NCBI GenBank assembly: GCA_020049115.1
Contig: JAIFLK010000258.1
Location: 1-20,220, forward strand
DNA length: 20,220 bases
Source: Chloroflexota bacterium
GTDB lineage: Bacteria > Chloroflexota > Anaerolineae > 4572-78 > J111
Direction: 5' to 3'
A program made the position numbers and the translations under genes. Positions within the stretch are counted from its first letter, which is position 1; every line of letters begins with the position of its first letter. Below, piece by piece: positions 2,914 through 20,220 of this stretch. The notes beneath the pieces were generated by a model. It was not told where the DNA came from. It did not search any database and saw nothing but the letters and a program-made list of their open reading frames with translations.

Positions 2914-2928
2914 GATAATATTCCTTTA

Positions 2929-2944
2929 TATTAGTTAGTTAGTT
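2929..2944. repeat. (TTAG)4 microsatellite giving stop codons in all three frames on both strands
   Basis: ttagttagttagttag sits between the start of the DUF4236 gene and the stop of the MVP-like gene. Confidence 0.7.
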
Positions 2945-2954
2945 AGCGAGTCAG

Positions 2955-3013
2955 CGTTAAGCGAGTCAGCGATTATAAGGCTCAAAGCCTTATAATCGCT
3001 GACTCGCTTAACG
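2955..3013. repeat. Perfect 27-bp-stem palindrome (cgttaagcgagtcagcgattataaggc-tcaaa-reverse complement), a composite of the GCGAGTCAGC repeat and the TTATAAGG hairpin core
   Basis: Reverse complement of 2955-2981 equals 2987-3013. 'agcgagtcagcg' occurs twice in tandem (2944-2955, 2961-2972) and again, inverted, at 5481-5553. Confidence 0.85.
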
Positions 3014-4393
3014 TGTCTCAATGCTTAAATTAACGTCGGCGGGGGTGAAATAAAGGGTCGCATTACCCTGACTCACCGCCTCTAACGCCTCTTGTTTTCG
3101 TAAGGTATTAAAAATCGCCAGCTTATTTGGCAAAGGTAACTCCTCGCCTAACCCATTAAGGAAGGCTTGCACCTTAAACGCCTCCGCCTCACCCGCCGTC
3201 AACGCCTCCACTTGGGCATGGTCACGCCGCAAGGCCAACAGTTGCCCACGCATCTGCTCCGCCTCAATTTCACCTTTAATCTGTTTCAACTTCGTTTCAT
3301 TTTCACTCTCTTGCTTTTGTTGCCGATTGAGACGGTTGGTGGTTTCAGTGATAATTTCCTGTAATATCCGTTGCGTGGCGGCATCTTTACAGGAAATAGA
3401 GCGCACCTCCACCGCATTGAGTTGCACCCCGCGCTCGGTATAAAACGTCATATCACTTTCTAACACCGCCTGATAAATGATTAAATTGAAACTCGCCAAA
3501 AATTTCTCCAGCGTCACCTGTGACACCGATTGAATGATGGCACTGCGAGCATGGGAGCAAATATCGCCTGGCGTGTCATCGGTTTTGCTAATCATGGCCT
3601 CAAAATCCGCCACCGCCCAAAAAAAGGTAATGCCAATCGTTAATTCTACGTTATCTTGAGTCCGCGCCTCAAACTCATACCACATGAACTTCGGACGCAA
3701 ATCAAACTTGGTCAGGCGCAAATCGCGACGCTCTTTATGCAGCCCCGTTGACCAGCGCAACTCCACAATTTCGGAGTAAGGGTCAAGAAAAAAGGCACGG
3801 TCAGGGTCGGTGCCGCGCTTAATGGTATATTTCCCTGTTCTATCACGGATAATAACGACTTCGTTATCTTCCAATAAAATCCGTTGACGCACTTTTACAA
3901 TTTCTTGTTGGGCGGTTGGAATAAAAACTTGCGGTGTCGTAATTAACTCCAACTGCCCCGTATGCGTATCACGCACCATGACGGCAGTTTGTTCATCAAT
4001 GTTAATCCCATCTTCAACTTTAACGATGATTTGCTCAGTCGGTTGCACATAGATACTTTGCTCCCCTCGTTCCACCCGCACCATGCCTGTTTTTTCGTCC
4101 ATGATACGAACATATTGATGTTTTTTCAGGGGAACAGCCTGTAATTCAACATCAATTTCATCAGTTGCTGACAGAAACAATAATTTTGGCCCAATTTCAA
4201 TCCGTTTTTCACCTGTTAAAACATTAAGCACCCGTACATAATCGGTTGGCCCCAAAACAGTCGCCTTACGCCGCTTCACCCGCCAAAAGGGGCGCGCCCA
4301 ACATTGGCCAGGCCCATTCACCACCCACCGTTTGCTAAAGGCTGCAATGAGTAACTGTTCGTCATCTTTGAGAAAGTATAGCCAGGGAATCAT
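3008..4393 (-). CDS. Major vault protein (MVP) homologue, short bacterial form: ~4 MVP repeats, an SPFH-like shoulder domain and a cap-helix region
   Basis: 461-aa ORF. Repeated ~50-aa modules 'YVRVLNVLTGEKRIEIGPK', 'YVRIMDEKTGMVRVERGEQSIYVQP', 'AVMVRDTHTGQLELITTPQVFIP' and 'VVIIRDRTGKYTIKRGTDPDRAFFLDP' resemble MVP repeats. The segment 'TQDNVELTIGITFFWAVADFEAMISKTDDTPGDICSHARSAIIQSVSQVTLEKF' aligns with the eukaryotic MVP shoulder (…ADHARLQLQLAYNWHFEV…[27 protein letters not shown]…). A following E/Q/A-rich helix resembles the cap-helix. Confidence 0.65.
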   Translation of the reverse strand: MIPWLYFLKDDEQLLIAAFSKRWVVNGPGQCWARPFWRVKRRKATVLGPTDYVRVLNVLTGEKRIEIGPKLLFLSATDEIDVELQAVPLKKHQYVRIMDEKTGMVRVERGEQSIYVQPTEQIIVKVEDGINIDEQTAVMVRDTHTGQLELITTPQVFIPTAQQEIVKVRQRILLEDNEVVIIRDRTGKYTIKRGTDPDRAFFLDPYSEIVELRWSTGLHKERRDLRLTKFDLRPKFMWYEFEARTQDNVELTIGITFFWAVADFEAMISKTDDTPGDICSHARSAIIQSVSQVTLEKFLASFNLIIYQAVLESDMTFYTERGVQLNAVEVRSISCKDAATQRILQEIITETTNRLNRQQKQESENETKLKQIKGEIEAEQMRGQLLALRRDHAQVEALTAGEAEAFKVQAFLNGLGEELPLPNKLAIFNTLRKQEALEAVSQGNATLYFTPADVNLSIETR

Positions 4394-4412: not shown

Positions 4413-5357
4413 TTATGATTGAGGCGATTGCTCAGGAAATTTCACTAGGGCGTTAAAATCAGTTAGGGTGGGAACGGTGAAAAGATGGTCACTGAGTTGG
4501 TCAAAGGTGGTGGAGTCCTTAATGCTGTTTAATTTTGCTATCAGGTAAGGGGGCAGTGGCCCAAATCTAAGTACCAATAAGCGCATGAGCAATTGTCTTT
4601 TCCCTTTAACCTCGCCAATGGCTTCGCCTATGGCCTTACCTTTCGCTTTGGCTTTAAGGGCAATACGTTCACTCCATGTTAATTCAACTTGAGCTAAATG
4701 AGTCATAATATCACTTTCTCCTACAGCTATTTTTTTACTAGGTAAATAGGTTTGGACTAGATTGACTAGATAAAGTTGGTCGGCTAATTCTAGTTCACTA
4801 TTCATCACCGATTCTAAGGCGGCTAATTTGACCGCAGCTTTCTCATGACTTGCTGATTTCATTAAGGTGGCGAGGGTAGCGGCAACGGGGTCGCCACTTA
4901 TCAGGTAATCATGGCTTGGTAAATCCCGTATGCCCACTTGCCCATAACGAAAATGAATCAATTCCTCCTCGAACAACGATTCACGATAACTTTTCCAGGC
5001 TAGGCCACCTACTTTGGGCAATAAAACCAGAGTTAAGGGTAAAATGGGCTTTTGGCGTAAAACCCGTAGTAAAGCATAATATTCAAAAAGACGTTGGGGC
5101 AAAGTAGTTTTATTTTGCTTTTCTATCTCTACATGAACAATAATGACTTCAGGTTGCCCACTAAATGTTTCGACTTCGGCCACCACATCGGGAATACGGA
5201 GGAAGGTATTAGGCAGGTTGATGATGAGTTCTCTTTCTAAAAAGATGAGGGTTTTAAAATTAAGATGAATTGCTTTTTCAGGAAAAAATAGCGTGACAAA
5301 TTCGGGTAGGAAACGATGAAAGAACTCTTTGAACAAACGGTCATGTAAGGTTGACAT
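4413..5357 (-). CDS. Rpn-family recombination-promoting nuclease / putative transposase (PD-(D/E)XK N-terminal domain plus C-terminal DUF4351)
   Basis: 'MSTLHDRLFKEFF' matches the Rpn/YhgA N-terminal HDxxFK motif. 'VIIVHVEIEKQ' is the PD-(D/E)XK core. The C-terminal 'KGKAIGEAIGEVKGKRQLLMRLLVLRFGPLP…' resembles DUF4351. The ORF track starts 14 codons further upstream at 5399; the Met at 5357 fits the family N-terminus better. Confidence 0.6.
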   Translation of the reverse strand: MSTLHDRLFKEFFHRFLPEFVTLFFPEKAIHLNFKTLIFLERELIINLPNTFLRIPDVVAEVETFSGQPEVIIVHVEIEKQNKTTLPQRLFEYYALLRVLRQKPILPLTLVLLPKVGGLAWKSYRESLFEEELIHFRYGQVGIRDLPSHDYLISGDPVAATLATLMKSASHEKAAVKLAALESVMNSELELADQLYLVNLVQTYLPSKKIAVGESDIMTHLAQVELTWSERIALKAKAKGKAIGEAIGEVKGKRQLLMRLLVLRFGPLPPYLIAKLNSIKDSTTFDQLSDHLFTVPTLTDFNALVKFPEQSPQS

Positions 5358-5480
5358 GAGAAAATTATAGCCGTAAAACCACCTAGAGACAATAAACATG
5401 GCGTTATTTTGTAAGGCAAGGGGTTAGCCTAATTTTGACATATTTTAACTATTATGGAAAATCAAGCTAAATCAAACTTT

Positions 5481-5553
5481 AATAGCGAGTCAGCGAGTCA
5501 GCTATCAGCAAAAAAGCTGACAGACTGAACGCTGACTAGCTGACTCGCTGACA
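5481..5553. repeat. Imperfect inverted repeat built from GCGAGTCAGC units (agcgagtcagcgagtcagctatcagc … gctgactagctgactcgctga)
   Basis: Direct tandem 'gcgagtcagc' on the left arm and its reverse complement on the right. It lies in the divergent intergenic region between the Rpn gene and the histidine phosphatase gene and belongs to the same family as 2944-3013. Confidence 0.7.
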
Positions 5554-6407: not shown

Positions 6408-6441
6408 AGCCATTATAAGGTTCTGAAACCTTATAATGGCT
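6408..6441. repeat. TTATAAGG-family hairpin (agccaTTATAAGGtt-ctga-aaCCTTATAAtggct) in the 5' UTR of the esterase gene
   Basis: Perfect 15-bp arms. It sits between the extended -10 promoter and the RBS/ATG at 6455. Confidence 0.8.
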
Positions 6442-7480: not shown

Positions 7481-7667
7481 GCCTAGCTGTCCTAGTACAC
7501 CGTTCATTTAATTATTAGTATATCCGAACAGACAGGAATGTCTGTTCCACCGTTGGTAGGTCAGACATTCCTGTCTGACAATGTCTGTTCCACCGTTGGT
7601 AGGTCAGACATTCCTGTCTGACCATATACTAAAAACTAAATGAACAATCCACTAGTACAGCTAGGCA
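7481..7667. mobile_element. MITE-like non-autonomous element: ~43-bp terminal inverted repeats around two tandem ~44-bp units, each carrying small palindromes
   Basis: Left end 'gcctagctgtcctagtacaccgttcatttaattattagtatat' versus the reverse complement of the right end 'gcctagctgtactagtggattgttcatttagtttttagtatat' (~80% identity). The internal unit 'aatgtctgttccaccgttggtaggtcagacattcctgtctgac' occurs twice in tandem and contains the palindromes acagaca…tgtctgt and gtcagaca…tgtctgac. Confidence 0.6.
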
Positions 7668-7678
7668 TGAGTAACTAA

Positions 7679-7716
7679 CCAGCCGTTATAAGGTTCAAAA
7701 CCTTATAACGGCTGGA
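7679..7716. repeat. TTATAAGG-family hairpin (ccagccgTTATAAGGtt-caaa-aaCCTTATAAcggctgg)
   Basis: Perfect 17-bp arms. It lies just right of the MITE-like element and upstream of the DUF4397 gene promoter. Confidence 0.8.
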
Positions 7717-8718: not shown

Positions 8719-8751
8719 AGACCTCACAGGTTTTTAAAACCTGTGAGGTCT
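8719..8751. repeat. Hairpin agACCTCACAGGTTT-tta-AAACCTGTGAGGTct, a variant subfamily sharing the AGGTT…AACCT inner core
   Basis: Perfect 15-bp arms, 12 bp after the DUF4397 stop. A sister copy lies at 14671-14703. Confidence 0.75.
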
Positions 8752-9566: not shown

Positions 9567-9617
9567 TAGGAGTCCGCAATTATTTGCGGGCTGTCCGCAA
9601 AGGATTGCGGACTCCTA
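9567..9617. repeat. Palindrome gtaggagtccgcaat…attgcggactccta with a nested hairpin gcggg-ctgt-ccgc; a partial direct copy lies at 9828-9853 (gtaggagtccacaattccttgtggg)
   Basis: 14-bp perfect inverted arms. The partial copy is ~80% identical over 25 bp and sits 36 bp before the 9889 start codon. Confidence 0.6.
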
Positions 9618-9639: not shown

Positions 9640-9745
9640 CAAACGAAATGCAGTATAGTACATGGTCAGACAAGAATGTCCGACCTACCGACGGTAGAAC
9701 AGACATTCTTGTCTGTTCGGATATGCTAGAAATTAAATAAATAGT
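9640..9745. mobile_element. Degenerate single-unit copy of the 7481-7667 MITE-like element, in opposite orientation
   Basis: 'gtcagacaagaatgtccgacctaccgacggtagaacagacattcttgtctgttcggatat' is ~90% identical to the reverse complement of 7524-7583. The flank 'gctagaaattaaataaatag' resembles the reverse complement of the element-1 terminal repeat. Confidence 0.5.
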
Positions 9746-9888
9746 CCCCTACGTATAGATTTAAGTTAACAATTGTTAAGCTACTTGGCAAAATAAGCCG
9801 CTAATTATATAATAGGGGGAAATATGTAGGAGTCCACAATTCCTTGTGGGCAGTTCCCTCATAACCGCGCCTAATGGAGAAGTAAATT

Positions 9889-10980
9889 ATGTTATGGCAA
9901 AGCTACTATACCCCTGAATCGCTTGATGAAGTTTTAGACTTGCTGGCAGAACATCGTGAAAAAGGGCCTCGTTTATTGGCTGGCGGCACGGATTTAATGG
10001 TTGAAATTGAGCGTAGCCAGCAACCCCCCAAAATTGTCATTGATGTAAGTTGTATCCCTGGTTTAGATACTATTTGGCAAGATGAACAAAAAAATATCCA
10101 TTTAGGGCCATTAGCCACCCATAATCAAGTGGTTGGCTCTAAATTATGTGTCCAAAAAGCCTTCCCTCTTGCCCAAGCATGTTGGCAAGTCGGCTCACCC
10201 CAAATTCGTAATCGTGGCACGGTGGCGGGCAATATCGTAACCGCGTCGCCCGCGAATGATACCATTACGCCTCTCGTGGCTTTGGGCGCGACCCTGACCC
10301 TGAAAAGTGTGCGCGGCAGTCGCGCCGTCAAAATTGATGAATTTTTCAAAGGGGTGCGCTCAACGGTGCTAGAACCTGATGAAATGGTGGTTGATATTAG
10401 CTTTCCCGCGCTCAATGGCTACGAAATCGGCACATTTATTAAGGTTGGCTTGCGGCGCGCTCAGGCTATTTCCGTGGTAAACATTGCGGTAGTTTTGGGC
10501 ATGTTCGCCGATACCATTACTCGCGCTCGGATTGCTTTTGGTAGCGTTGCCCCAACGATTATCCGCTCTTTTGATGCGGAACGCTTTTTGAGTGGCAAAG
10601 TGATGACCCAAGAGGTCATTGACCGTGTGGGGGCGATTGCCGAGCAAACCATTTTTCCCATTAGTGATGTGCGCGGTTCCGCCGAATATCGCCGTTATAT
10701 GGTTAAAACCGTGACCCGCCATGCGCTGCAATCTCTCAGCCAAGGCACCGAGTCGGACATCTTTCCGCCCAAACCCGTTATGTTATGGGGCAAAACTAAT
10801 GGCTCATTTAAGCCGCATGAGGGTGGTTCAGTGGTGCATACGGTGGATAAAAATGAGCCGATTAGCACCACTATTAATGGTCAACCGCAGGCGATTAGCG
10901 GGGCAAATGGCAAAACCCTCCTCCGCATGTTACGCGAAAACGCGAACTTGACTGGTACGAAAGAGGGTTCGCGAACTTGA
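9889..10980 (+). pseudogene. Xanthine-dehydrogenase-family FAD-binding subunit (CoxM/XdhB-like). Its 3' end already encodes the start of the [2Fe-2S] domain; it is truncated by a frameshift from a 29-bp tandem duplication
   Basis: FAD_binding_5 motifs are present ('LLAGGTDLMVE', 'GTVAGNIVTASPANDTITPLVALGATL') and the CO-dehydrogenase flavoprotein C-terminal region is present ('RGSAEYRRYMVKTVTRHAL'). The tail '…[33 protein letters not shown]' corresponds to the N-terminus of the 2Fe-2S small subunit and then runs into SRT-stop. Confidence 0.7.
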
Positions 10981-10998
10981 CTGGTACGAAAGAGGGTT
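10941..10998 (+). repeat. Exact 29-bp tandem duplication (cgcgaacttgactggtacgaaagagggtt ×2) inside the fused FAD/[2Fe-2S] gene
   Basis: Positions 10941-10969 are identical to 10970-10998. 29 is not a multiple of 3. Deleting one copy reads through in frame as …[18 protein letters not shown]…. Confidence 0.9.
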
Positions 10999-11369
10999 GC
11001 GCCGAGGGCGAATGTGGGGCCTGTACGGTGATGTTAGATGGCATTGCAGTGGATAGCTGCCTCGTGCCAGCCCCGCGCGCCCATCAAAGTGAGATTGTTA
11101 CGATTGAAGGATTGGCGCAAGGTGAAACCCTGCATCCTGTTCAACAGGCATTTATTGATGAAGGCGCGGTGCAATGTGGTTACTGTACGCCAGGCTTTTT
11201 GATGAGTGGAGCTAATTTGATGGAAGAACGTAAACGCCCGACTCATGATGATATTAAGCAAGCCATTACGGGTAATTTGTGTCGCTGTACGGGATATTAC
11301 AAAATATTGCAAGCGTTAGAGCAATCCTGTGGCGTGGTTTCGGCCAAGCCTAGAATGAAGCATAATTAA
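10977..11369 (+). pseudogene. [2Fe-2S]-binding small-subunit (CoxS/XdhC-like) portion of the disrupted fused gene; the ORF begins at TTG and lacks its own N-terminal ~35 residues
   Basis: Plant-ferredoxin-type motif C-x4-C-x2-C-x11-C ([22 protein letters not shown]) and the second cluster CGYCTPGF…CRCTGY are present. The N-terminal β-grasp residues are encoded in the upstream ORF. Confidence 0.7.
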
Positions 11370-11406
11370 AATTTGGGTAGCTGATTTATGACTGTAAGGA
11401 GGTATT

Positions 11407-12330
11407 ATGACCACATTAACGCTAGAAATGGCTGAGACCACGAATTTAACTGAAACACCCTCTGACCCATACCTTTACGGTTGGCGACAGGTGACGCGTT
11501 ACGCGCCTGATGGGGAGATGGTGTTTGTGCTTCAGCCCTTAACCTTAGATGATATATTACACCCCCAAGAGGATGACCAACGGATGCACGCGCCTTACCA
11601 TGAACGAATTTGTCGTTATTTAGCCGATGTTTTTGCAACCTATTTAGCCCATGACCCGACTGTTCAGGTCTTTACTGATTTGCGGGTGGCGTGGAATCAT
11701 CCTTACATTGACCCGCATACACCTGATATTTCGGTGGTCTTTGGGGTGAATAATCAGGGGCAGGAATGGACTACTTTTTATGAAGCCAAAGAGGGAACGC
11801 GGCCAACTTTGGTGGTAGAAGTGACCTCACCCTCCACGCGATTGTTAGATTTGGTGGATAAGTTTGACGAGTATGAGCGCGTTGGCTTAGAGTATTACAT
11901 TATTATTGACCGTGTTAAACAGCGCAGTAATGTACAACGGCGAGTGTTAGGGTTTCATTGGACACCACAGGGTTATGAAAAGTTACCTTTGAATGAACAA
12001 GGTTGGTTGTGGTTAGAGCCTGTGCGGGTTTGGGTCACTTGGGAAGACGATGAAATAGTTTGTTATGATGAACAAGGCAAATCTATTCCTAATTATCTCG
12101 CTGTAACCCAGGCCTGGGTTGAAGCGGAGGCTAAAGCTGAGGCGGAGGCTACGGCGCGGGTTGAAGCGGAGGCTAAAGCTGAGGCGGCGGCTACGGCGCG
12201 AGTTGAAGCGGAATCTAAGGCGCATGCAGCGGAGGCCAAAGCTGAATCCGAAGTTAAAGCGCGGGTTGAACTTGAAGCCCGTTTACAACAGCTTGAAGCG
12301 GAGTTGCGCCGTTTACAAGGCAATAGTTAA
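11407..12330 (+). CDS. Uma2-family (DUF820) restriction-endonuclease-like protein with a C-terminal Ala/Glu/Lys-rich coiled-coil repeat extension
   Basis: 'RPTLVVEVTSPSTRLLDLVDKFDEYERVGLEYYIIIDR' matches the Uma2 core (P.l.vEV.SpsT…D…K…Y…Gv.EYwivD). There is a strong RBS aaggaggt 6 nt upstream. The C-terminal repeats are (VEAEAKAEAEATAR)n and end in LQQLEAELRRLQ. Confidence 0.7.
   Translation: MTTLTLEMAETTNLTETPSDPYLYGWRQVTRYAPDGEMVFVLQPLTLDDILHPQEDDQRMHAPYHERICRYLADVFATYLAHDPTVQVFTDLRVAWNHPYIDPHTPDISVVFGVNNQGQEWTTFYEAKEGTRPTLVVEVTSPSTRLLDLVDKFDEYERVGLEYYIIIDRVKQRSNVQRRVLGFHWTPQGYEKLPLNEQGWLWLEPVRVWVTWEDDEIVCYDEQGKSIPNYLAVTQAWVEAEAKAEAEATARVEAEAKAEAAATARVEAESKAHAAEAKAESEVKARVELEARLQQLEAELRRLQGNS
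12118..12290 (+). repeat. Tandem ~54-bp coding repeats (gaagcggaggctaaagctgaggcggaggctacggcgcgggtt…) encoding the Uma2 C-terminal coiled-coil
   Basis: Near-identical units are visible at 12118-12171 and 12166-12219, with degenerate units after. Confidence 0.6.
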
Positions 12331-12336
12331 ATGGTC

Positions 12337-12369
12337 AGCCCTTATAAGGTTTTGAACCTTATAAGGGCT
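12337..12369. repeat. TTATAAGG-family hairpin (agcccTTATAAGGtt-ttg-aaCCTTATAAgggct) between the Uma2 gene and the molybdopterin subunit gene
   Basis: Perfect 15-bp arms. The outer arms are identical to the 1729 copy, while the inner core is the AGGTT/AACCT variant. Confidence 0.8.
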
Positions 12370-12427
12370 TAAAGTTGTCTGTGGCGATTTTTTTGAAAAT
12401 CCTAAAATTATTTATAAGTAGGTCAAC

Positions 12428-14662
12428 ATGAGCAATCAACTCATTGGCACATCTATCAAACGAATCGATGCACGCGGCAAGGTCACAGGGGAGGCCATTT
12501 ACCCTGGTGACCGTAATTTTGGCGATGAATTGTGGCTTAAAATACTCTTCGCCCGCCGCCCCCATGCCCGCGTGGTCAAAATTAATACTAAAGCTGCCGA
12601 AACGTTGCCTGGTGTATTGGGCATTTTAACGGCCAAAGATGTCCCCGTCAATCAATATGGTTTGCAAGTCCCTGACCAACCCGTTTTATGCGGCCCTGGC
12701 TCCAATAAAAAAGGGGGCGATATTGTGCGCTTTATCGGCGACCATGTGGCGGTGGTGATTGCGGAAACGGAAGAAATTGCCACCAAAGCCCGCGATTTAA
12801 TTCGGGTGGAGTATGAGGATTTGCCCGTAGTTTATAATGCGGAATATGCCATGTCAGGGCAAGCCCCACAGTTGCACCCCAATGTGGCGAAAAATATCGC
12901 GGCTTATCAGCGTATTCGCAAAGGCGATACGGACGCGGCCTGGAATGAATGTAATATTATTATTGAAGGGACGTATCAAACACCATTTCAGGAACATGCC
13001 TATTTACAGCCCGAAGCGGGTACGGCTTACATGGACGCTGAGGGACGGATTACAGTACATTGCGCGGGGCAATGGACATGGGAAGACCAACAGCAAATCG
13101 CCCATGCTTTGGATTTGCCACCCGATAAAATTCGGGTGATTTATGATGCCATTGGTGGGGCATTTGGTGGCCGCGAAGATATGAGTGTGCAAATCGTTTT
13201 GGCTCTGGCCGTTTTGCGGATGTATCAACGGCATGGCAATCGCCGCCCCGTTAAAATTATTTGGACGCGCGAAGAGTCCATGATTGGTCACTGCAAACGT
13301 CATCCCATGCTTTTTCGCACGAAATGGGGCGCGAAACGGGACGGTAAATTGGTGGCGGCGGAGGTGGAAATTATTGCCGATGGCGGCGCGTACATGTACA
13401 CGAGTAACAAAGTGTTAGGCAATGCCGTTATGTGTTGCACGGGGCCGTATGAATTTAGCCATGTCAAAGTGGACGCGTACGCGGTTTATACCAATAATTT
13501 GGTGTCGGGCGCATTTCGCGGGTTTGGTGCGCCGCAAGCCCATTTTGTGGCGGAAATGCAAATGAATAAATTGGCCGAGAAAATGGGTAAAGACCCCGTA
13601 GAAGTACGGCTGAAAAATTTGCTCACCGTTGATTCTACGCTGTCCGTTGGCACGACTATCCCTGGCGGAGTCAGTTTGGAGAAGGTGCTGCGGGAGGCCG
13701 CTTGGCAATCTAACTGGCGCAGTCGGGTTGGCCCGCGCGGGGAGAATGACCCTGATTTTCCTGATGAGTTGCCGCGTTTAGTGAAGGGCAGTGGCGTGGC
13801 AGTGGCCTTCAAAAATATCGGCTTTAGCTTGGGCTATCAAGAAAATAGCTGGGCGGGGGTTGAATTTCATGGCGAAAGCGATATTGAGCAAGTGATTGTT
13901 AAAATTGCGGGGGCAGATGTGGGGCAGGGGCATCACACGGTCATGGCGCAAATCGCGGCTGAGGTTGCGGGGGTGGGCATGGATAAAGTGAAGGTTGAGG
14001 CTTCCGATACCGCGTTTACCGAAAGTTCTGGCAGTGCGAGTGCGTCGCGCCTCACCTTTATGGCGGGTAATGCAGTTAAAGAGGCGGCGCAATTTGCGCT
14101 CAAGAAATGGCGGTCAGAAGAGCGTCCTGCCATTGCCGAGGCCACCTGGCTTGCCCCGAAAACCACCCCCTTTGACCCACAAACGGGGCATAGTTTACCC
14201 AACTTTGCGTATGGTTATGTGGCGCAGGTGGTGGAGGTGTTGGTGGATACCGAGACGGGCAGTATTACGGTGCAACGGGTGGTTTGCGCCGATGACGTGG
14301 GCAAGGCGATTAACCCTGAGCAAATTATCGGGCAAATTGAGGGCGGGATTGTGCAGGCGCATGGGTATGCGCTGTTGGAAGATTTTCGCATGGACAAGGG
14401 GCAGGTTTTAACGCCCAATTTCACTACCTATCTTATCCCTGGGGTGTATGATATTCCGAAACAAATTGTCCCCATTATTGTGGAAGACCCACATCCCCAA
14501 GGCCCCTTTGGGGCGCGTGGCATGGCCGAAATGCCGATGATTCCATACACGCCCGCCGTCGCTGCCGCCGTATTTGATGCCATTGGTATTTGGTTTGATG
14601 AGTTTCCTTTGACCCCAGAACGGGTTTTACGGGGGCTAGGCAAGGTGCGGAGTCGGCTGTAA
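12428..14662 (+). CDS. Xanthine dehydrogenase / aldehyde oxidase family molybdopterin-binding large subunit
   Basis: 744-aa ORF. N-terminal a/b-hammerhead region 'IGTSIKRIDARGKVTGEAIYPGD'. The active-site segment 'SGAFRGFGAPQ' matches the XDH/AOX 'AFRGFGGPQ' motif rather than the CODH AYRCSFR or AYRGAGR loops. Confidence 0.8.
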   Translation: MSNQLIGTSIKRIDARGKVTGEAIYPGDRNFGDELWLKILFARRPHARVVKINTKAAETLPGVLGILTAKDVPVNQYGLQVPDQPVLCGPGSNKKGGDIVRFIGDHVAVVIAETEEIATKARDLIRVEYEDLPVVYNAEYAMSGQAPQLHPNVAKNIAAYQRIRKGDTDAAWNECNIIIEGTYQTPFQEHAYLQPEAGTAYMDAEGRITVHCAGQWTWEDQQQIAHALDLPPDKIRVIYDAIGGAFGGREDMSVQIVLALAVLRMYQRHGNRRPVKIIWTREESMIGHCKRHPMLFRTKWGAKRDGKLVAAEVEIIADGGAYMYTSNKVLGNAVMCCTGPYEFSHVKVDAYAVYTNNLVSGAFRGFGAPQAHFVAEMQMNKLAEKMGKDPVEVRLKNLLTVDSTLSVGTTIPGGVSLEKVLREAAWQSNWRSRVGPRGENDPDFPDELPRLVKGSGVAVAFKNIGFSLGYQENSWAGVEFHGESDIEQVIVKIAGADVGQGHHTVMAQIAAEVAGVGMDKVKVEASDTAFTESSGSASASRLTFMAGNAVKEAAQFALKKWRSEERPAIAEATWLAPKTTPFDPQTGHSLPNFAYGYVAQVVEVLVDTETGSITVQRVVCADDVGKAINPEQIIGQIEGGIVQAHGYALLEDFRMDKGQVLTPNFTTYLIPGVYDIPKQIVPIIVEDPHPQGPFGARGMAEMPMIPYTPAVAAAVFDAIGIWFDEFPLTPERVLRGLGKVRSRL

Positions 14663-14728: not shown

Positions 14729-14756
14729 TTGACAAAATTAGGATTCAGGCTATAAT
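14729..14756 (+). promoter_or_regulatory. Consensus sigma70 promoter TTGACA-16-TATAAT driving tRNA-Leu
   Basis: TTGACA at 14729-14734 and TATAAT at 14751-14756 with a 16-bp spacer. The tRNA 5' end at 14770 is 13 nt downstream of the -10. Confidence 0.75.
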
Positions 14757-14769
14757 CCAATAGATATTC

Positions 14770-14850
14770 GCCTCGGTGGCGGAACGGCATACGCAGCAGG
14801 TTGAGGGCCTGTGCCCGATGGGCGTGAGAGTTCAAATCTCTCCCGAGGCA
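14770..14850 (+). tRNA. tRNA-Leu (anticodon GAG), class II with long variable arm
   Basis: Acceptor stem GCCTCGG/CCGAGGC with discriminator A. D-arm GCG(G)…CGC. Anticodon stem GCAGG/CCTGT with loop TTGAGGG. Variable arm GCCC-gat-GGGC. T-arm GAGAG-TTCAAAT-CTCTC. No CCA is encoded. Confidence 0.8.
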
Positions 14851-14866
14851 TCTATATAAAACAACG

Positions 14867-14894
14867 AACCCCCTATTACGGGGGTTTTTTGTTT
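14867..14894 (+). terminator. Intrinsic terminator after tRNA-Leu (aaCCCCC-tattac-GGGGGtttttt)
   Basis: 5-7-bp GC stem followed by T6 and gtttt. Confidence 0.75.
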
Positions 14895-14967: not shown

Positions 14968-17900
14968 TTAATACGTTCTTTGGAAAGTAACCTCAAAGGA
15001 GCTATGAAAAAGCGAAATAGCATTGGTATCACCATTTTCTTCACAGGTGCGGTTGGTGGCAAAGTCTGGGGTGATATGTTCGGCAATGTCGCTCGTGCCA
15101 CCCATTACTTGCACTTGATACGTTCCTTTGAACATGGCAAAATCAATGTGACCTGCTTCAGGCTGTCCGATCAAGTTAGTTTTAGTTTCGGTTTGTGGCG
15201 TAACAAAACCATCTGGTACGGGCGACCATTGGATTTTGATGGGTAGACCATTAATGCCTTGTCCAGAGGGGTCAATTACGTGGACAAATATATGGTGCTT
15301 GCCTTTGTTTTCGCAAGGGGTCAATTCCCGAATGCTGACCAAACGGAAATCCACATTGGGCGTGGCGGTGGCTTCAGGGGTGGGGGTGTCGGTGGGCGGA
15401 CGTGGAGTGCTGGTTTGGGGGATGGGGGTTTCTGTAGGAACACCCGTTGAGGTTGGCGTGGTGGTAGGTGTATCAACCATAGTCGGGGTACTGGTTGGGG
15501 TGGTGGTATCTGTGGGAGTTGGCGTATTGGTCGGGATGGGGGTCATGGTAGAGGTACTGGTGGCGGTTGGGGTGTCGGTTGGGGTGGGGGTTGGCGTGGT
15601 GGTGGGGGTGGTCGTCTCCACAAAGGGCAATGCAGCAGCCATGCCCGCAACCGCGCCGTCATCGCGCATTTGTTCGGCTATGGTACGGTTATCTCCTGGC
15701 AATGCGCCACCATCATTGAGCGAGGCGGCTAAAACATCCATAATGGCCCAGGGGAGCATGATACCACAGAGCCAGACAACGAATAAGATAACGAAAAGTA
15801 AACGAAATTTGGCCCCAATAGTACGTTTGGCAAACCACATAGAGACGGAAGTGCGATTGGATGGAGCGGCGGTGGCAGTGGCTTGTTTTTGTAATTTTCT
15901 ATTAGAAACGGCCTGCATTTGCGGCGCGATCTGGGGTGGGCGTTGTTCGGTAGAGATTGTACGCGGTGCAGGTTTGGCTACGGTTTCTAACGGCGGCGGG
16001 GTAGGATTAGACTGAACCACTGTTTTCTCTTTAGGTCGTCGCTTTTTGGCCGCTGTAGGCGCAACTTTAGTTGGCTCGGCGGGGCGGCGGTTAGAGCGAT
16101 TAGATGTGCCGCTAGTGGGCGCGGTGGGTTTAGAGGGGTTGCGCGGCGGAACAGGTGGCGCGACTGCGGGCATGCCTTGTGTAAATTGCGAGTGAGTGTT
16201 GGCGGGCTGAAAGGCTTGGGTGTGTTGGGAGTGAACGTTGGCGGGTGTAATAGGCTGGGTATGTTGCCCATGTACTGTTGGTTTGAGGGGCTGAGTGAGT
16301 TGCGAATGATTGACTGGCCCAGTCGGGCGGAGGGGCTGGGTGTGTTGACCATGCACGGCAGACGCGCTAGGGCGAATGGGTGGCGTATAGGCCGAAGGGG
16401 GGGACATGGGAGCCATGGGTTGGGTGAATTGGGAATGGTTGGGCGAGACGGCGGGGCTAATCCGTCGTGGTGGAGCCGATTGGGGGCGTGAGGGCGGCAT
16501 GGGGTGCAACGGTACAGGCGGATTGGCGCGCACGGGTACGGGCAAATTGCTTGGGTTGACGGGCTTAAGGCGTACGGGTGGTAGAGACAGGGCATGCCCT
16601 GTCTCTACGGGTAGCCCACGTTGACCAGAAGCGTTCCGCATACGATTCATGACCTCGTCTAACCGTTCACTTAAGAGACGGCTAAAAGTCATGGCGAGCA
16701 TGGGATAACGGCTGAGAAAGCGGTCAAAGTCATTTTTGGTCAGTACCCAAACTTCACTATCTGTAACTACTTGGGCGGTGGCGGGTTGCCCTTTGCCAGA
16801 GATGAGGCCAATTTCGCCCAGAAAGTCACCTGGCTTAAAGGTTTCTAACAACATGGCCCCTTGCGGAGTTGCTACCCAATGTTCAATTTGCCCTTTAGAA
16901 ATGAAATACATTTTATCGGCAGGTTGACCCGCTTGGTAGATGACTCCGCCTGCACGATAATAATCGGGGCGTAAATAAGAGGATAATTCATCTAATTGGG
17001 CGCGGGAGAGGCCGCCTAAAATAGCAATCTTTTGTAAGTGAGTTTCTGAGGTATAATCTTCTGCCGCCTTGAATTGAGCGCGTAAGGCTTGGCTGAGGGA
17101 GGCACTGAGTTGGGGATATTTGACCAACAGGTGGTCAAAATCAGCCCGATATAAGCCCCATAAATTGGTGTCAGCAATAGAGTAGGCGGTGAAGCCGCGA
17201 GTTTTGCCCGTGAGCAGTGCGGCCTCGCCAAAATATTCACCTTCCGTTAGGCGTGCTAGCAACTTCGTGGGGCGGCCTGGGGTTTCATCAAAAGTATCAA
17301 CCACGCCAGAGTCGATAATGTACATGGCATCGCCAGGCGCGCCTTGCGGAAAGATGATTTGCCCCGCAGGAACGTGACGTAATAAGAGTAAATTTGCCAT
17401 GTCATTGAGGGCGGCCTCGTCTAAATTGGCAAACATGCCGATTTGTTTCAGAATGGAAATAGCATGGGCTTGGTCAGCCGTATCTAAGCGGGAACTTAAG
17501 TTTTGACTTAAGTTGGTTTTAATGCTAGGGGTGGTTTCTACCAAAGCGGTAAAATCAGTTGGGCTAAGTTGCCAGATGATGGTTTCGGTGGCTGCTTGGG
17601 CGGTATAGGCATGGGGCTTGTTGGATAAAACCGCCATTTCGCCAAAGGCATCGCCTGGCATCAGTTCGGTAAAATCATTATCCAATTGGCCGAGCAATCG
17701 CACAATGCCCTGGTCAATGAAGAAAATGCCCTGCGGGGCTTCTCCGTCACGGTAAATTGTGCCGTGGGGGTAATAACGGCGCGGGATTAACCGTTGGGCG
17801 ATTTGGGCTAATTCATAGGGCGATAGATTTTGTAATAATTGTACTTGACTCAATTGCATGGTTAGCTGCGGATGATAAGGCACAATGGCGCGCTCCATCG

Positions 17901-18270
17901 CTAAACTGAGCGCGAGGCCAATTTCAAAATGCTCATCAATCACCTCGGTCATGGCGGAGGTGGTTAATGCCCAGGCGGTCACATCAGTGGTGGCTTGGGC
18001 GGCCATTGCATGGCTTTGACCTAAGAAAAAATCGGCCTCGCCTAACAAACTGCCTGAGCCTAAGTTGGCTAAAATTGTGCCATCACTGGCGACCAGTTTT
18101 ACCCAGCCTTCTTTAATCAAGTAAAGGGTATCGCTATCGCTACCGATTTGAAACAATGTTTCAGCGGGGCGATAGCTTTCCAGGCGTAACCGTTTGCCAA
18201 TAGCACGTTGAGCTTCCTCGCTCAAATGGGCAAATAGCGGACTATTTTTAATAAATTCTTCTTTCATCAT
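14968..18270 (-). CDS. Large membrane protein: four tandem cyclic-nucleotide-binding domains, Pro-rich H(S/G)Q(F/H/L)TQ repeats, one transmembrane helix, a Thr/Pro-rich linker and a Cys-pair C-terminal extracytoplasmic β-domain shared with the next two genes
   Basis: 1100-aa ORF. Four cNMP-binding modules each carry the (F/L)GE(M/A/I)(A/G)L phosphate-binding-cassette-like motif ('LGEADFFLG', 'FGEMAVLSN', 'FGEAALLTG', 'LGEIGLISG'). ~7 repeats of 'VNHSQLTQPLKPT / VHGQHTQPITPAN'. TM 'FRLLFVILFVVWLCGIMLPWAIM'. Linker 'TTTPTTTPTPTPTDTPTATSTS…'. C-terminal 'PCENKGKHHIFVHVIDPSGQGINGLPIKIQW…GHIDFAMFKGTYQVQV…NRTCEENG'. Confidence 0.7.
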   Translation of the reverse strand: MMKEEFIKNSPLFAHLSEEAQRAIGKRLRLESYRPAETLFQIGSDSDTLYLIKEGWVKLVASDGTILANLGSGSLLGEADFFLGQSHAMAAQATTDVTAWALTTSAMTEVIDEHFEIGLALSLAMERAIVPYHPQLTMQLSQVQLLQNLSPYELAQIAQRLIPRRYYPHGTIYRDGEAPQGIFFIDQGIVRLLGQLDNDFTELMPGDAFGEMAVLSNKPHAYTAQAATETIIWQLSPTDFTALVETTPSIKTNLSQNLSSRLDTADQAHAISILKQIGMFANLDEAALNDMANLLLLRHVPAGQIIFPQGAPGDAMYIIDSGVVDTFDETPGRPTKLLARLTEGEYFGEAALLTGKTRGFTAYSIADTNLWGLYRADFDHLLVKYPQLSASLSQALRAQFKAAEDYTSETHLQKIAILGGLSRAQLDELSSYLRPDYYRAGGVIYQAGQPADKMYFISKGQIEHWVATPQGAMLLETFKPGDFLGEIGLISGKGQPATAQVVTDSEVWVLTKNDFDRFLSRYPMLAMTFSRLLSERLDEVMNRMRNASGQRGLPVETGHALSLPPVRLKPVNPSNLPVPVRANPPVPLHPMPPSRPQSAPPRRISPAVSPNHSQFTQPMAPMSPPSAYTPPIRPSASAVHGQHTQPLRPTGPVNHSQLTQPLKPTVHGQHTQPITPANVHSQHTQAFQPANTHSQFTQGMPAVAPPVPPRNPSKPTAPTSGTSNRSNRRPAEPTKVAPTAAKKRRPKEKTVVQSNPTPPPLETVAKPAPRTISTEQRPPQIAPQMQAVSNRKLQKQATATAAPSNRTSVSMWFAKRTIGAKFRLLFVILFVVWLCGIMLPWAIMDVLAASLNDGGALPGDNRTIAEQMRDDGAVAGMAAALPFVETTTPTTTPTPTPTDTPTATSTSTMTPIPTNTPTPTDTTTPTSTPTMVDTPTTTPTSTGVPTETPIPQTSTPRPPTDTPTPEATATPNVDFRLVSIRELTPCENKGKHHIFVHVIDPSGQGINGLPIKIQWSPVPDGFVTPQTETKTNLIGQPEAGHIDFAMFKGTYQVQVMGGTSDIAEHITPDFATNRTCEENGDTNAISLFHSSFEVTFQRTY
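16130..16620 (-). repeat. Approximate span of the Pro-rich H(S/G)Q(F/H/L)TQ-type ~11-aa coding repeats inside the 14968..18270 gene
   Basis: Repeated 'HSQFTQ', 'HGQHTQ', 'HSQLTQ', 'HSQHTQ' in the translation. The low-complexity DNA generates spurious antisense ORFs (15987..16595, 16177..16491, 16406..16624). Coordinates are estimated, not counted. Confidence 0.4.
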
Positions 18271-18393: not shown

Positions 18394-19446
18394 TTATTTA
18401 ACTCCTTGTTGCAGCACCAGTTGCCACGCGGGCAAACTGTTCTGGCAAAGGGGTAGATTATTTAAGGTTATTTCGGGTATAGGTGGGGTAGTTTTCATAT
18501 TAACCACTTCAACCTGATAAGTTTCAGTTAATTTCATTTGAAAATCGGCATAGCCAGGCTCTATTTCGGGCTTGAAACCCGTGAATAAATGATCTTCACC
18601 ATTCGCCCAACTTACTTTAATTTCGATGCCTGGGATACCTTGACCGAGTGTATCATGAATATAAATTCTCAGCAATCCTGTGTTAAGGTTATCGCAGACT
18701 CCTTTAGAATGTTTGACTGCTAAAGGGGCGTTTAGGTTACGGGTTGGAGTGACTTTAGGGAGAAAGGAGTAGGGCGTAGGGAGTAAGGTGGAAGTAATGG
18801 TTGGACGTAAGGTGGAAGGAGTAAGGGATAGGGTGGCAGTGACCGTTGAGGAGTAGGGTAGAGGGATTAGGGTAGAAGAAGTAAGGGCTAAGGTGGCGGT
18901 CATGGTTGGGGTGGCGCGAGTGGGGGTGTTGGTGGGGCGCGGGGTTGGAGTAATAGTCGGTGTGGTGGTAGAGGTTGGCGTGGGAGTATTGGTTGCTGTG
19001 GGTGTGGTTAAGTAAGTTGACATAAGCGGTGATACTTTGCCCAGGGCTTGGGCTAATTCAACCAGTGCAGCGATGTCTCGGATGTCTCGCTCTTGATTTA
19101 TGTATGCTTCCGTAATAATAATGATGGTTTGGTTTATATTGGGGTCAGCGACGGCGGCTAATCGAGTTTGCGCCTGGTCTAGGTGATGATTATGGGCGTA
19201 GGCCAGGGCAATGAGCCGAATATAAATGGCTTTGGCTGATGGGCGCAAATCCGCAGGTGTGACTGGGAGGGGGCGAGGGTCAAGCAGCCAACCGTAGGTG
19301 AGTGATAAAGCCAAACCCACCATAAAACCAAAAAGAAAACCGCCCACCCACCAGGCACGGTCATGGGGATTTCGGCGCGGAGTGGGCTTAGACGGTTGAA
19401 CAACTTTGGACAAAGTTTGGTTTTTTAGGGTAGAAAGTAGGGGCAA
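18394..19446 (-). CDS. Membrane-anchored paralogue: short cytoplasmic N-terminus, one TM helix, extracytoplasmic helical region, Thr/Pro-rich linker and the shared Cys-pair C-terminal β-domain
   Basis: TM 'WWVGGFLFGFMVGLALSLTYGWLL'. Linker 'TTPTATNTPTPTSTTTPTITPTPRPTNTPTRATPT…'. C-terminal 'GVCDNLNTGLLRIYIHDTLGQGIPGIEIKVSW…GYADFQMKLTETYQVEV…NNLPLCQNS' aligns with the C-termini of the 14968..18270 and 19520.. genes. Confidence 0.65.
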   Translation of the reverse strand: MPLLSTLKNQTLSKVVQPSKPTPRRNPHDRAWWVGGFLFGFMVGLALSLTYGWLLDPRPLPVTPADLRPSAKAIYIRLIALAYAHNHHLDQAQTRLAAVADPNINQTIIIITEAYINQERDIRDIAALVELAQALGKVSPLMSTYLTTPTATNTPTPTSTTTPTITPTPRPTNTPTRATPTMTATLALTSSTLIPLPYSSTVTATLSLTPSTLRPTITSTLLPTPYSFLPKVTPTRNLNAPLAVKHSKGVCDNLNTGLLRIYIHDTLGQGIPGIEIKVSWANGEDHLFTGFKPEIEPGYADFQMKLTETYQVEVVNMKTTPPIPEITLNNLPLCQNSLPAWQLVLQQGVK

Positions 19447-19519: not shown

Positions 19520-20220
19520 TTAATGAGTTTTTTGTAAGGTTAATTCGTAGGCGTAATGTCCACGACATAAGGAATTACTGCTTTTACGACGGAGGCAATC
19601 ATCCATGTCTAAACAATAGTTAGCCTCAATCAGCCATTCATTCGGAATGTCTTCATCCCAGGTGCTAAGTTTATCACTCACTTGGCTGGTGGCAGGTGCG
19701 CCTCCAACATCACTGGTCACATGGAGGGCGTAGCCATTTTTATACATGTCATATTCTAGCTTCCCTGGCCCCTTTTCACCACTCACATGGGGCGGCACGG
19801 CCTGGTCACTATCTTCAACCGTTACACCGTCTAACGGATTGCCATTAACATCAAGCACCGTTACGAAAATTTGATGTGCGCCAGGACATTGACCGTAATC
19901 AGGATTACGAACCATTTTTTGATGAGTGACCACAAAATCAAACGCGGGTTTAGGTGGCTCAGGCGTGGCCGTAGGTTCAGGGGTATTCGTGGGTGGTTGC
20001 GGGACGGGTGTATCAACGGGAACAGGGGTTTCAGTATCTTCAGGCGTGGTCGTTGCTTCAGCGGTTGCAGTCTCTGTAGGTGTGGCGGTTTCGGCGGGAA
20101 TGGGGGTATCAGTCGGCAATTGAATGGGTGTGGAGGTGTTGGTTGGGACGGGAGTCGCGGTGGCAGCAGGAGTATGGGTCGGGGCGGCGGTGGGTGTGGG
20201 TGAAGCCAACATGGCTACCA
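19520..20220 (-). CDS. Third paralogue, 5'-truncated by the window end: Thr/Pro-rich linker plus the shared C-terminal Cys-containing β-domain
   Basis: The ORF runs to the window edge, so the Met at 20212 is probably internal. Linker 'PTPTAAPTHTPAATATPVPTNTSTP…'. C-terminal 'GQCPGAHQIFVTVLDVNGNPLDGVTVED…GKLEYDMYKNGYALHV…NYCLDMDDCLRRKSSNSLCRGHY'. Confidence 0.6.
   Translation of the reverse strand, partial: VAMLASPTPTAAPTHTPAATATPVPTNTSTPIQLPTDTPIPAETATPTETATAEATTTPEDTETPVPVDTPVPQPPTNTPEPTATPEPPKPAFDFVVTHQKMVRNPDYGQCPGAHQIFVTVLDVNGNPLDGVTVEDSDQAVPPHVSGEKGPGKLEYDMYKNGYALHVTSDVGGAPATSQVSDKLSTWDEDIPNEWLIEANYCLDMDDCLRRKSSNSLCRGHYAYELTLQKTH

Follow-up and report, generated by a model that had tools for sequence, protein, structure and literature searches.

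A tailed Uma2-family gene within a xanthine-dehydrogenase-family operon of an uncultured member of the Chloroflexota

The Uma2 gene in the dehydrogenase operon

The window analysed here is a stretch of 20,220 nt from a Chloroflexota bacterium, and all coordinates are given in window numbering. The host is an uncultured member of the Caldilineaceae/Anaerolineales group of the Chloroflexota. The span 11370-12427 contains a single long open reading frame (ORF) at 11407-12330 on the plus strand, which encodes a Uma2-family protein of 307 aa. The gene lies between two subunit genes of a xanthine-dehydrogenase-family molybdoenzyme: the stop codon of a gene for a fused flavin adenine dinucleotide (FAD)-binding and iron-sulfur (Fe-S) subunit is at 11367-11369, and the gene for the molybdenum cofactor (Moco)-binding subunit starts at 12428. 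The spacers are 37 nt long (11370-11406) before the Uma2 gene and 97 nt long (12331-12427) after it; neither of them holds an ORF, and no antitoxin gene adjoins the Uma2 gene. The features of the locus are as follows.

9889-11369, plus strand: gene for the fused FAD-binding and [2Fe-2S] subunit (Pfam FAD_binding_5, CO_deh_flav_C, Fer2_2 and Fer2)
11397-11404, plus strand: Shine-Dalgarno sequence AAGGAGGT, 2 nt upstream of the ATG of the Uma2 gene, seen directly in the sequence
11407-12114, plus strand: putative Uma2 nuclease core (aa 1-236), with a conserved N-terminal YGWR / PLTLxDxLHP region and a PD-(D/E)XK core (D107, E138, D148, K152)
12115-12330, plus strand: C-terminal tail (aa 237-307) and stop codon, Ala/Glu/Lys/Arg-rich, predicted to form one long helix
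12337-12369, unstranded: perfect palindrome of the TTATAAGG family, with 15-nt arms AGCCCTTATAAGGTT and AACCTTATAAGGGCT, a 3-nt loop and no U-tract after it
12428-14662, plus strand: gene for the molybdopterin-binding (Moco) subunit, intact, 744 aa (Pfam Ald_Xan_dh_C, MoCoBD_1 and MoCoBD_2)

An earlier sequence-only reading of this DNA had described a Uma2 gene with a strong Shine-Dalgarno sequence between subunit genes of a xanthine-dehydrogenase-family enzyme, followed at once by a hairpin. The ORF, the match to Pfam PF05685, the AAGGAGGT site and the positions of the flanking genes all agree with this description, and a perfect hairpin begins 6 nt past the stop codon. The flanking genes carry the FAD-binding, two [2Fe-2S] and Moco-binding domains of the molybdoenzyme (Pfam). 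The NCBIfam matches of the xanthine dehydrogenase type were all below their curated cutoffs (e.g. pucD, 540.7 versus 783.65), and for this reason the dehydrogenase was given no substrate-level assignment.

The locus was compared with about 160 loci (~1.46 Mb) around relatives of the Moco subunit, 80 from species-representative genomes and 80 from metagenomes. All of the named loci were from Chloroflexota, the best being those in Caldilineaceae/Anaerolineales metagenome-assembled genomes (MAGs); some of the loci are perhaps from the same populations. The Moco subunit is 99.7% identical to that on the metagenome contig L002 and 74-79% identical to those of the Caldilineaceae/Anaerolineales relatives. 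Both genes are present in 26 close loci, and in 23 of these the FAD/Fe-S and Moco genes are separated by -7 to 188 bp. The other three are L019, with a 265-bp gap and no ORF; L007, with a pair of DUF433 and DUF5615 genes; and L020, with a different Uma2 gene. The flanking genes are 66-79% conserved in the 26 close loci, which are without this Uma2 gene. The subunit genes are adjacent in many distant loci too (e.g. L024, L025, L058, L064, L078, L081 and L082). Outside the window's own population (contigs L001 and L002), no homologue of this Uma2 protein was found at the junction in the ~160 loci.

Conserved presence of the gene at this site in divergent relatives, which the sequence-only reading had named as the observation that would speak for an ancestral arrangement, was searched for and is absent; thus the insertion reading stands. 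The same reading had expected the subunit genes of relatives to adjoin without this Uma2 gene, and its claim of an insertion into the operon accords with the near-adjacent genes of the 23 relatives and with the lack of an orthologue at the site. On these grounds the Uma2 gene is a lineage-specific insertion, in a short spacer that separated the FAD/Fe-S gene from the Moco gene, and the adjacency of the two subunit genes is ancestral. The closest Uma2 homologues (63% and 55% identity) lie in unrelated neighbourhoods, as do more distant ones, and there is no conserved partner gene.

The opposite possibility, that the Uma2 gene is an ancestral or functional member of the operon which was lost in relatives, would be in keeping with its orientation on the same strand, its short spacers and its own Shine-Dalgarno sequence. 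Uma2 genes also recur beside the operon in four other lineages (see below). However, these other genes are not orthologues, homologues of the window gene occur in many unrelated contexts, and the gene is absent from 26 close loci while the subunit genes adjoin in distant loci as well. An ancestral origin is thus considered extremely improbable.

The FAD/Fe-S fusion gene is broken in the window into two ORFs (9889-10980 and 10977-11369). The cause of the frameshift is a perfect tandem duplication within the first ferredoxin domain of the fusion gene.

10941-10998, plus strand: perfect 29-bp tandem duplication, CGCGAACTTGACTGGTACGAAAGAGGGTT twice (Tandem Repeats Finder period 29, 2.0 copies, 100% match)

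Exactly the same Uma2 protein is encoded at the same position on two metagenome contigs, L001 (ENA) and L002 (JGI). The duplication is absent from both of them, and their fusion gene is unbroken, with 483 aa. The window and L002 are identical over 2.8 kb save for the 29 extra bases in the window. We infer that the duplication is a very recent single event or an assembly variant, unrelated to the Uma2 insertion.

The sequence-only reading had regarded the frameshift, together with the inserted gene, as symptoms of a decaying dehydrogenase locus. The break in the first [2Fe-2S] domain and the presence of a foreign gene and a hairpin between the subunit genes would be expected under decay; however, the sole lesion is the 29-bp duplication, which two other assemblies do not share. 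The Moco gene is full length, and all of its domains score strongly. The insertion is common to three assemblies, in which the flanking genes are intact save for the duplication in the window, and the Uma2 gene itself is under purifying selection. Decay of the whole locus is therefore rated very unlikely; the operon is interrupted, not degraded.

Selection on the Uma2 gene was estimated against the 63%-identical homologue on locus L003. The ratio of nonsynonymous to synonymous substitution rates (dN/dS) was 0.15 for the core and 0.24 for the tail, and these values are approximate because dS (~1.2) is close to saturation. They speak for a functional gene rather than a relic: the Uma2 gene is intact and under purifying selection.

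The Uma2 protein and its C-terminal tail

The protein matches Pfam PF05685 (Uma2) over aa 63-196 with 67.3 bits (cutoff 27; E=1.6e-18). In the alignment with 33 homologues, P106, E138 (in EVTSPS), D148 and K152 do not vary, and the conservation of D107 is at least 90%. This active-site pattern matches the PD ... E-x-x ... K variant, in which the Lys has moved to the following helix (PMC551604); COG4636 was described by Feder and Bujnicki in 2005 as a 'PD-EXX-K' variant with a migrated lysine (PMC551604). The AlphaFold2 model of the 307-aa protein has a mean predicted local distance difference test (pLDDT) score of 89.4 and an alpha/beta core over residues 25-220. A Foldseek search of this model against the PDB gave 6okh, 9y1l, 3ot2 and 1wdj as the best four matches, all of them DUF820/Uma2 structures, followed by BsaXI and lambda exonuclease. 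The profile of the 33 homologues also reached 9y1l (E=2.6e-8) and 6okh (E=1.8e-5) in the PDB. A glycoside-hydrolase match from the single-sequence PDB search was rejected as spurious; the profile was needed to reach the Uma2 structures. No NCBIfam model matched the Uma2 protein. The model thus points to a restriction-endonuclease-like PD-(D/E)XK fold, and the protein is a member of a distinct, tailed subfamily of the Uma2/COG4636 PD-(D/E)XK putative nucleases.

A role as a stand-alone anti-phage defence nuclease, situated by chance in a metabolic operon, was also considered. Four candidate-defence models of PADLOC (PDC-S03) match the protein, the best with E=1.3e-11 over aa 63-177; the library has no curated cutoff, and the PDC models are unvalidated candidates. 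A restriction-barrier role is also one of the options that were raised for COG4636 (PMC551604). However, the PADLOC match is confined to the generic Uma2 core, and the Uma2 protein of L020 has no PADLOC match. The neighbours are metabolic or housekeeping genes in every locus examined, without a defence island, and there is neither a methyltransferase nor a partner gene. A defence function is therefore regarded as unlikely.

The C-terminal tail is predicted by AlphaFold2 as a single helix over residues 230-305, with a block pLDDT of 90-96 over residues 241-300. Two features were recognised within it.

12116-12212, plus strand: 42-bp tandem repeat, 2.3 copies (Tandem Repeats Finder score 180, 96% matches), encoding 14-aa units VEAEAKAEAEATAR and VEAEAKAEAAATAR
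12265-12318, plus strand: terminal leucine-zipper-like motif VELEARLQQLEAELRRLQ (aa 287-304), with Leu on the a/d heptad positions in our reading of the sequence

The sequence-only reading had proposed tandem 18-aa repeats encoded by ~54-bp DNA repeats. No 54-bp or 18-aa repeat was found by Tandem Repeats Finder, which gave 2.3 copies of a 42-bp period and a weak sub-period of 18 bp (not 18 aa; 67% matches); the protein unit is thus 14 aa, not 18 aa. The tail had also been called unusual for the family, and for this subfamily the claim has to be withdrawn. All of the 120 closest homologues listed carry a tail of 20-134 aa (median 54), which is rich in Ala, Glu, Arg, Lys and Gln, and an LExEL-type motif is found about 12 residues before the C-terminus in 111 of the 120. 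The consensus of the terminal motif in the 33-sequence alignment is RLRxLEAELRRLRG (in a looser form, RLxxLEAELRRL[RQ]G), and the self-similarity of residues over all tails has its maximum at lag 14 (0.317). An exhaustive search of cluster representatives (50% identity) revealed 307 clusters with E<=1e-30, and most of the top ones align through the tail. The tail is thus a hallmark of this subfamily of Uma2 proteins.

The L003 homologue lacks the 42-bp repeats and has no counterpart of window positions 12154-12213; in the cluster representative P0001 a single residue of repeat 1 is different. The number and sequence of the repeats are thus fluid, whereas the terminal motif is fixed. The subfamily is built of a conserved N-terminal YGWR region, a putative nuclease head, a helical stalk that varies in length and follows a 14-residue (two-heptad) period, and a zipper-like terminal motif that is conserved. 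Some sources label some of the homologues as 'colicin import membrane protein'; these labels look like a composition artefact of the Ala/Glu-rich tail. The tail is not described in the Uma2 literature found, and the word 'coiled' is absent from PMC551604.

A Roseiflexaceae MAG carries a pair of tailed Uma2 paralogues within 3 kb (L087, 2451-3554 and 5001-6005), which is consistent with local proliferation of the family.

Moco-gene borders, hairpins and the rest of the window

A different Uma2 gene occupies the same junction in a Caldilinea aerophila MAG (L020 3951-4997, DYPX01000208.1; Pfam E=4e-14). Its protein is 27% identical to that of the window; MEGLP(T/I) repeats are found at its N-terminus and a tail of QERQRAE repeats at its C-terminus. 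The stop codon of this gene abuts the ATG of the Moco gene, and the hairpin is upstream of the gene rather than downstream. A census of Uma2 genes was performed with a hidden Markov model (HMM) iterated over all six-frame ORFs of the ~160 loci, by which divergent members were possibly missed. Outside L001 and L002 it yielded four Uma2 genes, all of them above the Pfam threshold and all abutting the Moco gene. Besides the gene of L020, these are L005 7280-8134 (same strand, 44 nt past the Moco stop codon), L157 6340-7050 (same strand, 101 nt past the Moco stop codon) and L143 6246-6845 on the minus strand (convergent with the Moco gene, 16 nt apart). The genes downstream in L005 are not conserved among relatives in the synteny comparison. 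If each locus is taken to have about 7-11 intergenic slots, all four genes would lie beside the Moco gene with a roughly estimated chance of ~0.003-0.013, and the recurrence is suggestive only.

Other small cassettes occupy the junction between the two dehydrogenase genes: the pair of DUF433 and DUF5615/Mut7-C genes in L007 (4295-4941), and a pair of PIN_3 and PhdYeFM genes in L030 (4153-4935). The latter locus also carries, between the FAD/Fe-S and Moco genes, a DUF6909 gene for a protein of about 580 aa (2399-4135, E=6e-230). Many Anaerolineales loci, with a Moco identity of 50-61%, share this conserved gene at that position, and the DUF6909 protein may be an unrecognised component of this enzyme system.

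The hairpin at 12337-12369 belongs to a repeat family that is abundant in the window, where TTATAAGG occurs 14 times versus 0.95 expected, a count reached in none of 100 shuffles. Five TTATAAGG hairpins (1729-1761, 2955-3013, 6408-6441, 7679-7715 and 12337-12369) are all intergenic, between co-directional genes. Four of the five are not beside a Uma2 gene, so the hairpin is not Uma2-specific. The stretch that holds the hairpin (12325-12430, 106 nt) folds with -29.5 kcal/mol (z=-3.5). Among 84 loci, the CCTTATAAGG core was found only in L001 and L002, from the window's own organism. The comparison with Rfam gave no family, neither for the hairpin nor for the rest of the window. Palindromes are unusually abundant between the genes of this genome; other elements include GTCAGACATTCCTGTCTGAC repeats at 7529-7623 and 9667-9715 (with a perfect 43-bp tandem repeat at 7537-7622), a TAGGAGTCCGCAAT hairpin at 9567-9617, and AGCGAGTCAGCG repeats at 2941-3013 and 5484-5552.

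The 63%-identical Uma2 gene of L003 also has a hairpin of the same type just past its stop codon, in the variant AGCCCTTATAGGG. The DNA similarity between the window and L003 starts at the Shine-Dalgarno sequence and ends with the hairpin. At a dS of ~1.2 a neutral flank would not survive; thus the hairpin at 12337-12369 is either under selection or part of a separately spreading repeat family. A module of gene and hairpin that move together was considered, and a repeat maintained on its own is rated as the likelier reading. A second family common to the window and L003 is the AGACCTCACAGGTTTT hairpin, which is at 8719-8751 in the window and upstream of the Uma2 homologue in L003. Strong palindromes are also present in the spacers of relatives (L005, L006, L008, L011, L016, L022 and L023), where they are unrelated and species-specific. 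A palindrome at this junction is thus normal and its sequence genome-specific; the FAD/Fe-S to Moco spacer seems as a rule to hold a hairpin. Hairpins or cruciforms as a general target or partner of Uma2 genes were considered and rejected: they flank the genes in the window, L003, L004 and L088, and none is near those in L085 and L087.

The recurrence raises the possibility of a targeted, homing-like process, in which Uma2 proteins would recognise the borders of the Moco gene, for example a spacer with a palindrome, cut the empty alleles and be copied in by repair. The position of all four census genes beside the Moco gene, the toxin-antitoxin cassettes of L007 and L030 at the junction, and the palindromes in the relatives' spacers would be consistent with this. 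However, the four genes are from different subfamilies and their hairpins differ in position, which makes one shared recognition site unlikely. Other members of the window's subfamily are in unrelated contexts, some of them (e.g. L085 and L087) without a nearby hairpin; Uma2 genes of divergent sequence in the flanks perhaps escaped the HMM; and insertions may merely be tolerated by an operon that is non-essential and has long structured spacers. Targeting is therefore rated as unlikely. An empty-site allele with near-identical flanks, which could serve for mapping of the cleavage site, was not found in the contig scans. In a bolder form, Uma2 genes would be selfish genes directed to a structure or a site, and would have settled repeatedly and independently at the palindrome-bearing borders of one particular operon, at the Moco-subunit gene of this dehydrogenase, with the stalk and the zipper setting the distance between the heads of a dimer. 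The chance of this is put at a low level; if true, it would give a family that has been without an assigned function since 2005 its first concrete target and a first mechanism of insertion.

Transcription of the locus was examined by consensus scans, which gave one promoter-like site upstream of the FAD/Fe-S gene.

9785-9813, plus strand: promoter-like site TTGGCA-17-TATAAT (11/12), upstream of the FAD/Fe-S gene, from the consensus scan only

This site is likely to be the start of the transcription unit which now contains the Uma2 gene. No comparable site was found by the scan on the plus strand between the Uma2 stop codon and the Moco start (12331-12427). The hairpin at 12337-12369 was not called as an intrinsic terminator: its stem has an A+T-rich centre and is followed by TTAAAGTTG, without a U-tract. 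As the hairpin is not a canonical terminator, the Moco gene would still be read through, and the Uma2 gene is most simply read as part of the operon transcript. A terminator-like hairpin at 14866-14887 was rejected as the operon terminator; it follows a transfer RNA gene, tRNA-Leu(GAG), at 14770-14850. The latter is just downstream of the Moco gene and has a promoter-like site of 12/12 consensus at 14729-14756.

Elsewhere in the window, a 461-aa protein (3008-4393, minus strand) has matches to SPFH/Band_7, the major-vault-protein shoulder and Vault_3 repeats, and beside this vault-like/SPFH gene is one for a protein with DUF4236 and TPR matches (1870-2913, minus strand). A 328-aa protein (4413-5399, minus strand) has a weak C-terminal DUF4351 match (22.1 bits versus a cutoff of 25); its gene precedes an A+T-rich stretch (GC 0.37 at 5001-5500). 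Four large minus-strand ORFs (14968-18270, 18394-19446, 19520-20212 and 10-1683) have long Pro/Thr-rich linkers, and among them is an 1100-aa protein with four cyclic-nucleotide-binding domains. A C-terminal domain of about 100 aa, without a Pfam match, seems to be similar in the first three of these ORFs; the ORF at 10-1683 has CBM96/CBM9 matches.

Interpretation and comparison with known systems

Taken as a whole, the locus is probably best explained by an intact tailed Uma2 gene that entered the operon as a lineage-specific insertion and belongs to a selfish type of solo nuclease genes. With its own Shine-Dalgarno sequence, the gene would be transcribed together with the dehydrogenase operon. 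The protein would be a Mg2+-dependent DNA endonuclease, in which the C-terminal zipper may pair two nuclease heads and the stalk may act as a spacer of variable length. The gene would be a solo selfish or 'solo-toxin'-type element, which proliferates as dispersed paralogues and settles in permissive intergenic sites, presumably without a role in the dehydrogenase. A selfish or mobile nature, which may hold for the gene in the window, has been proposed for the family since 2005 (PMC551604): horizontal transfer, proliferation and homing-like recombination were suggested for COG4636 (PMC551604), and Uma2 was classed as a likely solo toxin by Makarova et al. in 2009 (PMC2701414). The 63%-identical homologue is on L003, which comes from the same sample series as the window and shares its hairpin families.

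Several points weigh against this explanation. The insert shows no sign of a target-site duplication, terminal repeats or a mobility gene. In the scans of genome and metagenome contigs the closest empty-site relative had a Moco identity of at most 79%, and because of this distance the intergenic DNA is unalignable and a target-site duplication is not assessable. A near-identical copy of the gene was not found elsewhere, the plasmid and phage collections gave no tblastn match, and 2.9 million viral contigs gave only 5 weak partial matches; hence nothing points directly to recent mobility. The selection estimate is subject to the near-saturated dS, and co-transcription is deduced from consensus scans alone. 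In the literature found, no biochemical activity of any Uma2 protein is reported; nuclease activity, dimerisation by the tail and selfish behaviour are each what we infer for the protein and its gene.

The locus offers a clean comparison of the states before and after the arrival of the gene, with a junction that is empty in 23 relatives and filled here. In another lineage the junction is also occupied by a second Uma2 gene, unrelated to this one, and a widespread tailed subfamily is defined by the 307 clusters and the conserved C-terminal motif. The locus might thus serve as a handle on how Uma2 genes spread and what they cut.

Free-standing homing endonuclease genes are found between conserved genes, e.g. 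the seg and mob genes of phage T4. The Uma2 gene resembles them as a putative nuclease gene with its own ribosome-binding site in the spacer of two conserved, co-transcribed genes. It also resembles them in its presence/absence polymorphism at a conserved site: one lineage has the gene, and 26 loci of close relatives are without it. However, the Uma2 fold is not of the GIY-YIG or HNH type, and the gene is chromosomal in a bacterium rather than in a phage. Moreover, no orthologue or near-identical copy occupies the site in other hosts, where the nearest parallel is the 27%-identical Uma2 protein of L020, and cleavage of the empty site is a conjecture.

The type II toxin-antitoxin cassettes, such as the DUF433 and DUF5615 pair of L007 and the PIN and Phd pair of L030, are likewise small cassettes of a selfish type in the same junction; whereas the Uma2 gene has no adjacent antitoxin ORF, and its toxicity is conjectural here. 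The hairpins are similar to the repetitive extragenic palindromic (REP)-like sequences: a short perfect palindrome occurs in many intergenic copies between co-directional genes and is organism-specific, and the relatives have their own versions. They differ in that the hairpin family is not in Rfam, and no transposase of the RAYT type (REP-associated tyrosine transposase) is visible in the window.

The closest known system is the Uma2/COG4636/DUF820 family itself (PF05685; structures 1wdj, 3ot2, 6okh and 9y1l), which is very large and accounts for up to 2% of all genes of certain cyanobacteria (PMC551604). The window protein has an above-threshold Pfam match, the same predicted fold and the same PD...E-x-x...K variant, and its gene is a solo gene without a conserved neighbour, as in a dispersed family that is viewed as selfish or solo-toxin-like. 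However, it is about 120 aa longer than the solved chains of 150-190 aa; it adds the YGWR / PLTLxDxLHP region, a helical Ala/Glu/Arg-rich stalk and the terminal LEAELRRLRG motif; and its named matches are mainly from Chloroflexota and Poribacteria, not from cyanobacteria. The Uma2 gene behaves as the family is already thought to, and it is an ordinary case, mundane for the annotation of this genome. What deserves attention is the tail of stalk plus zipper, and the repeated independent arrival of Uma2 genes and toxin-antitoxin cassettes at the same Moco-gene borders.

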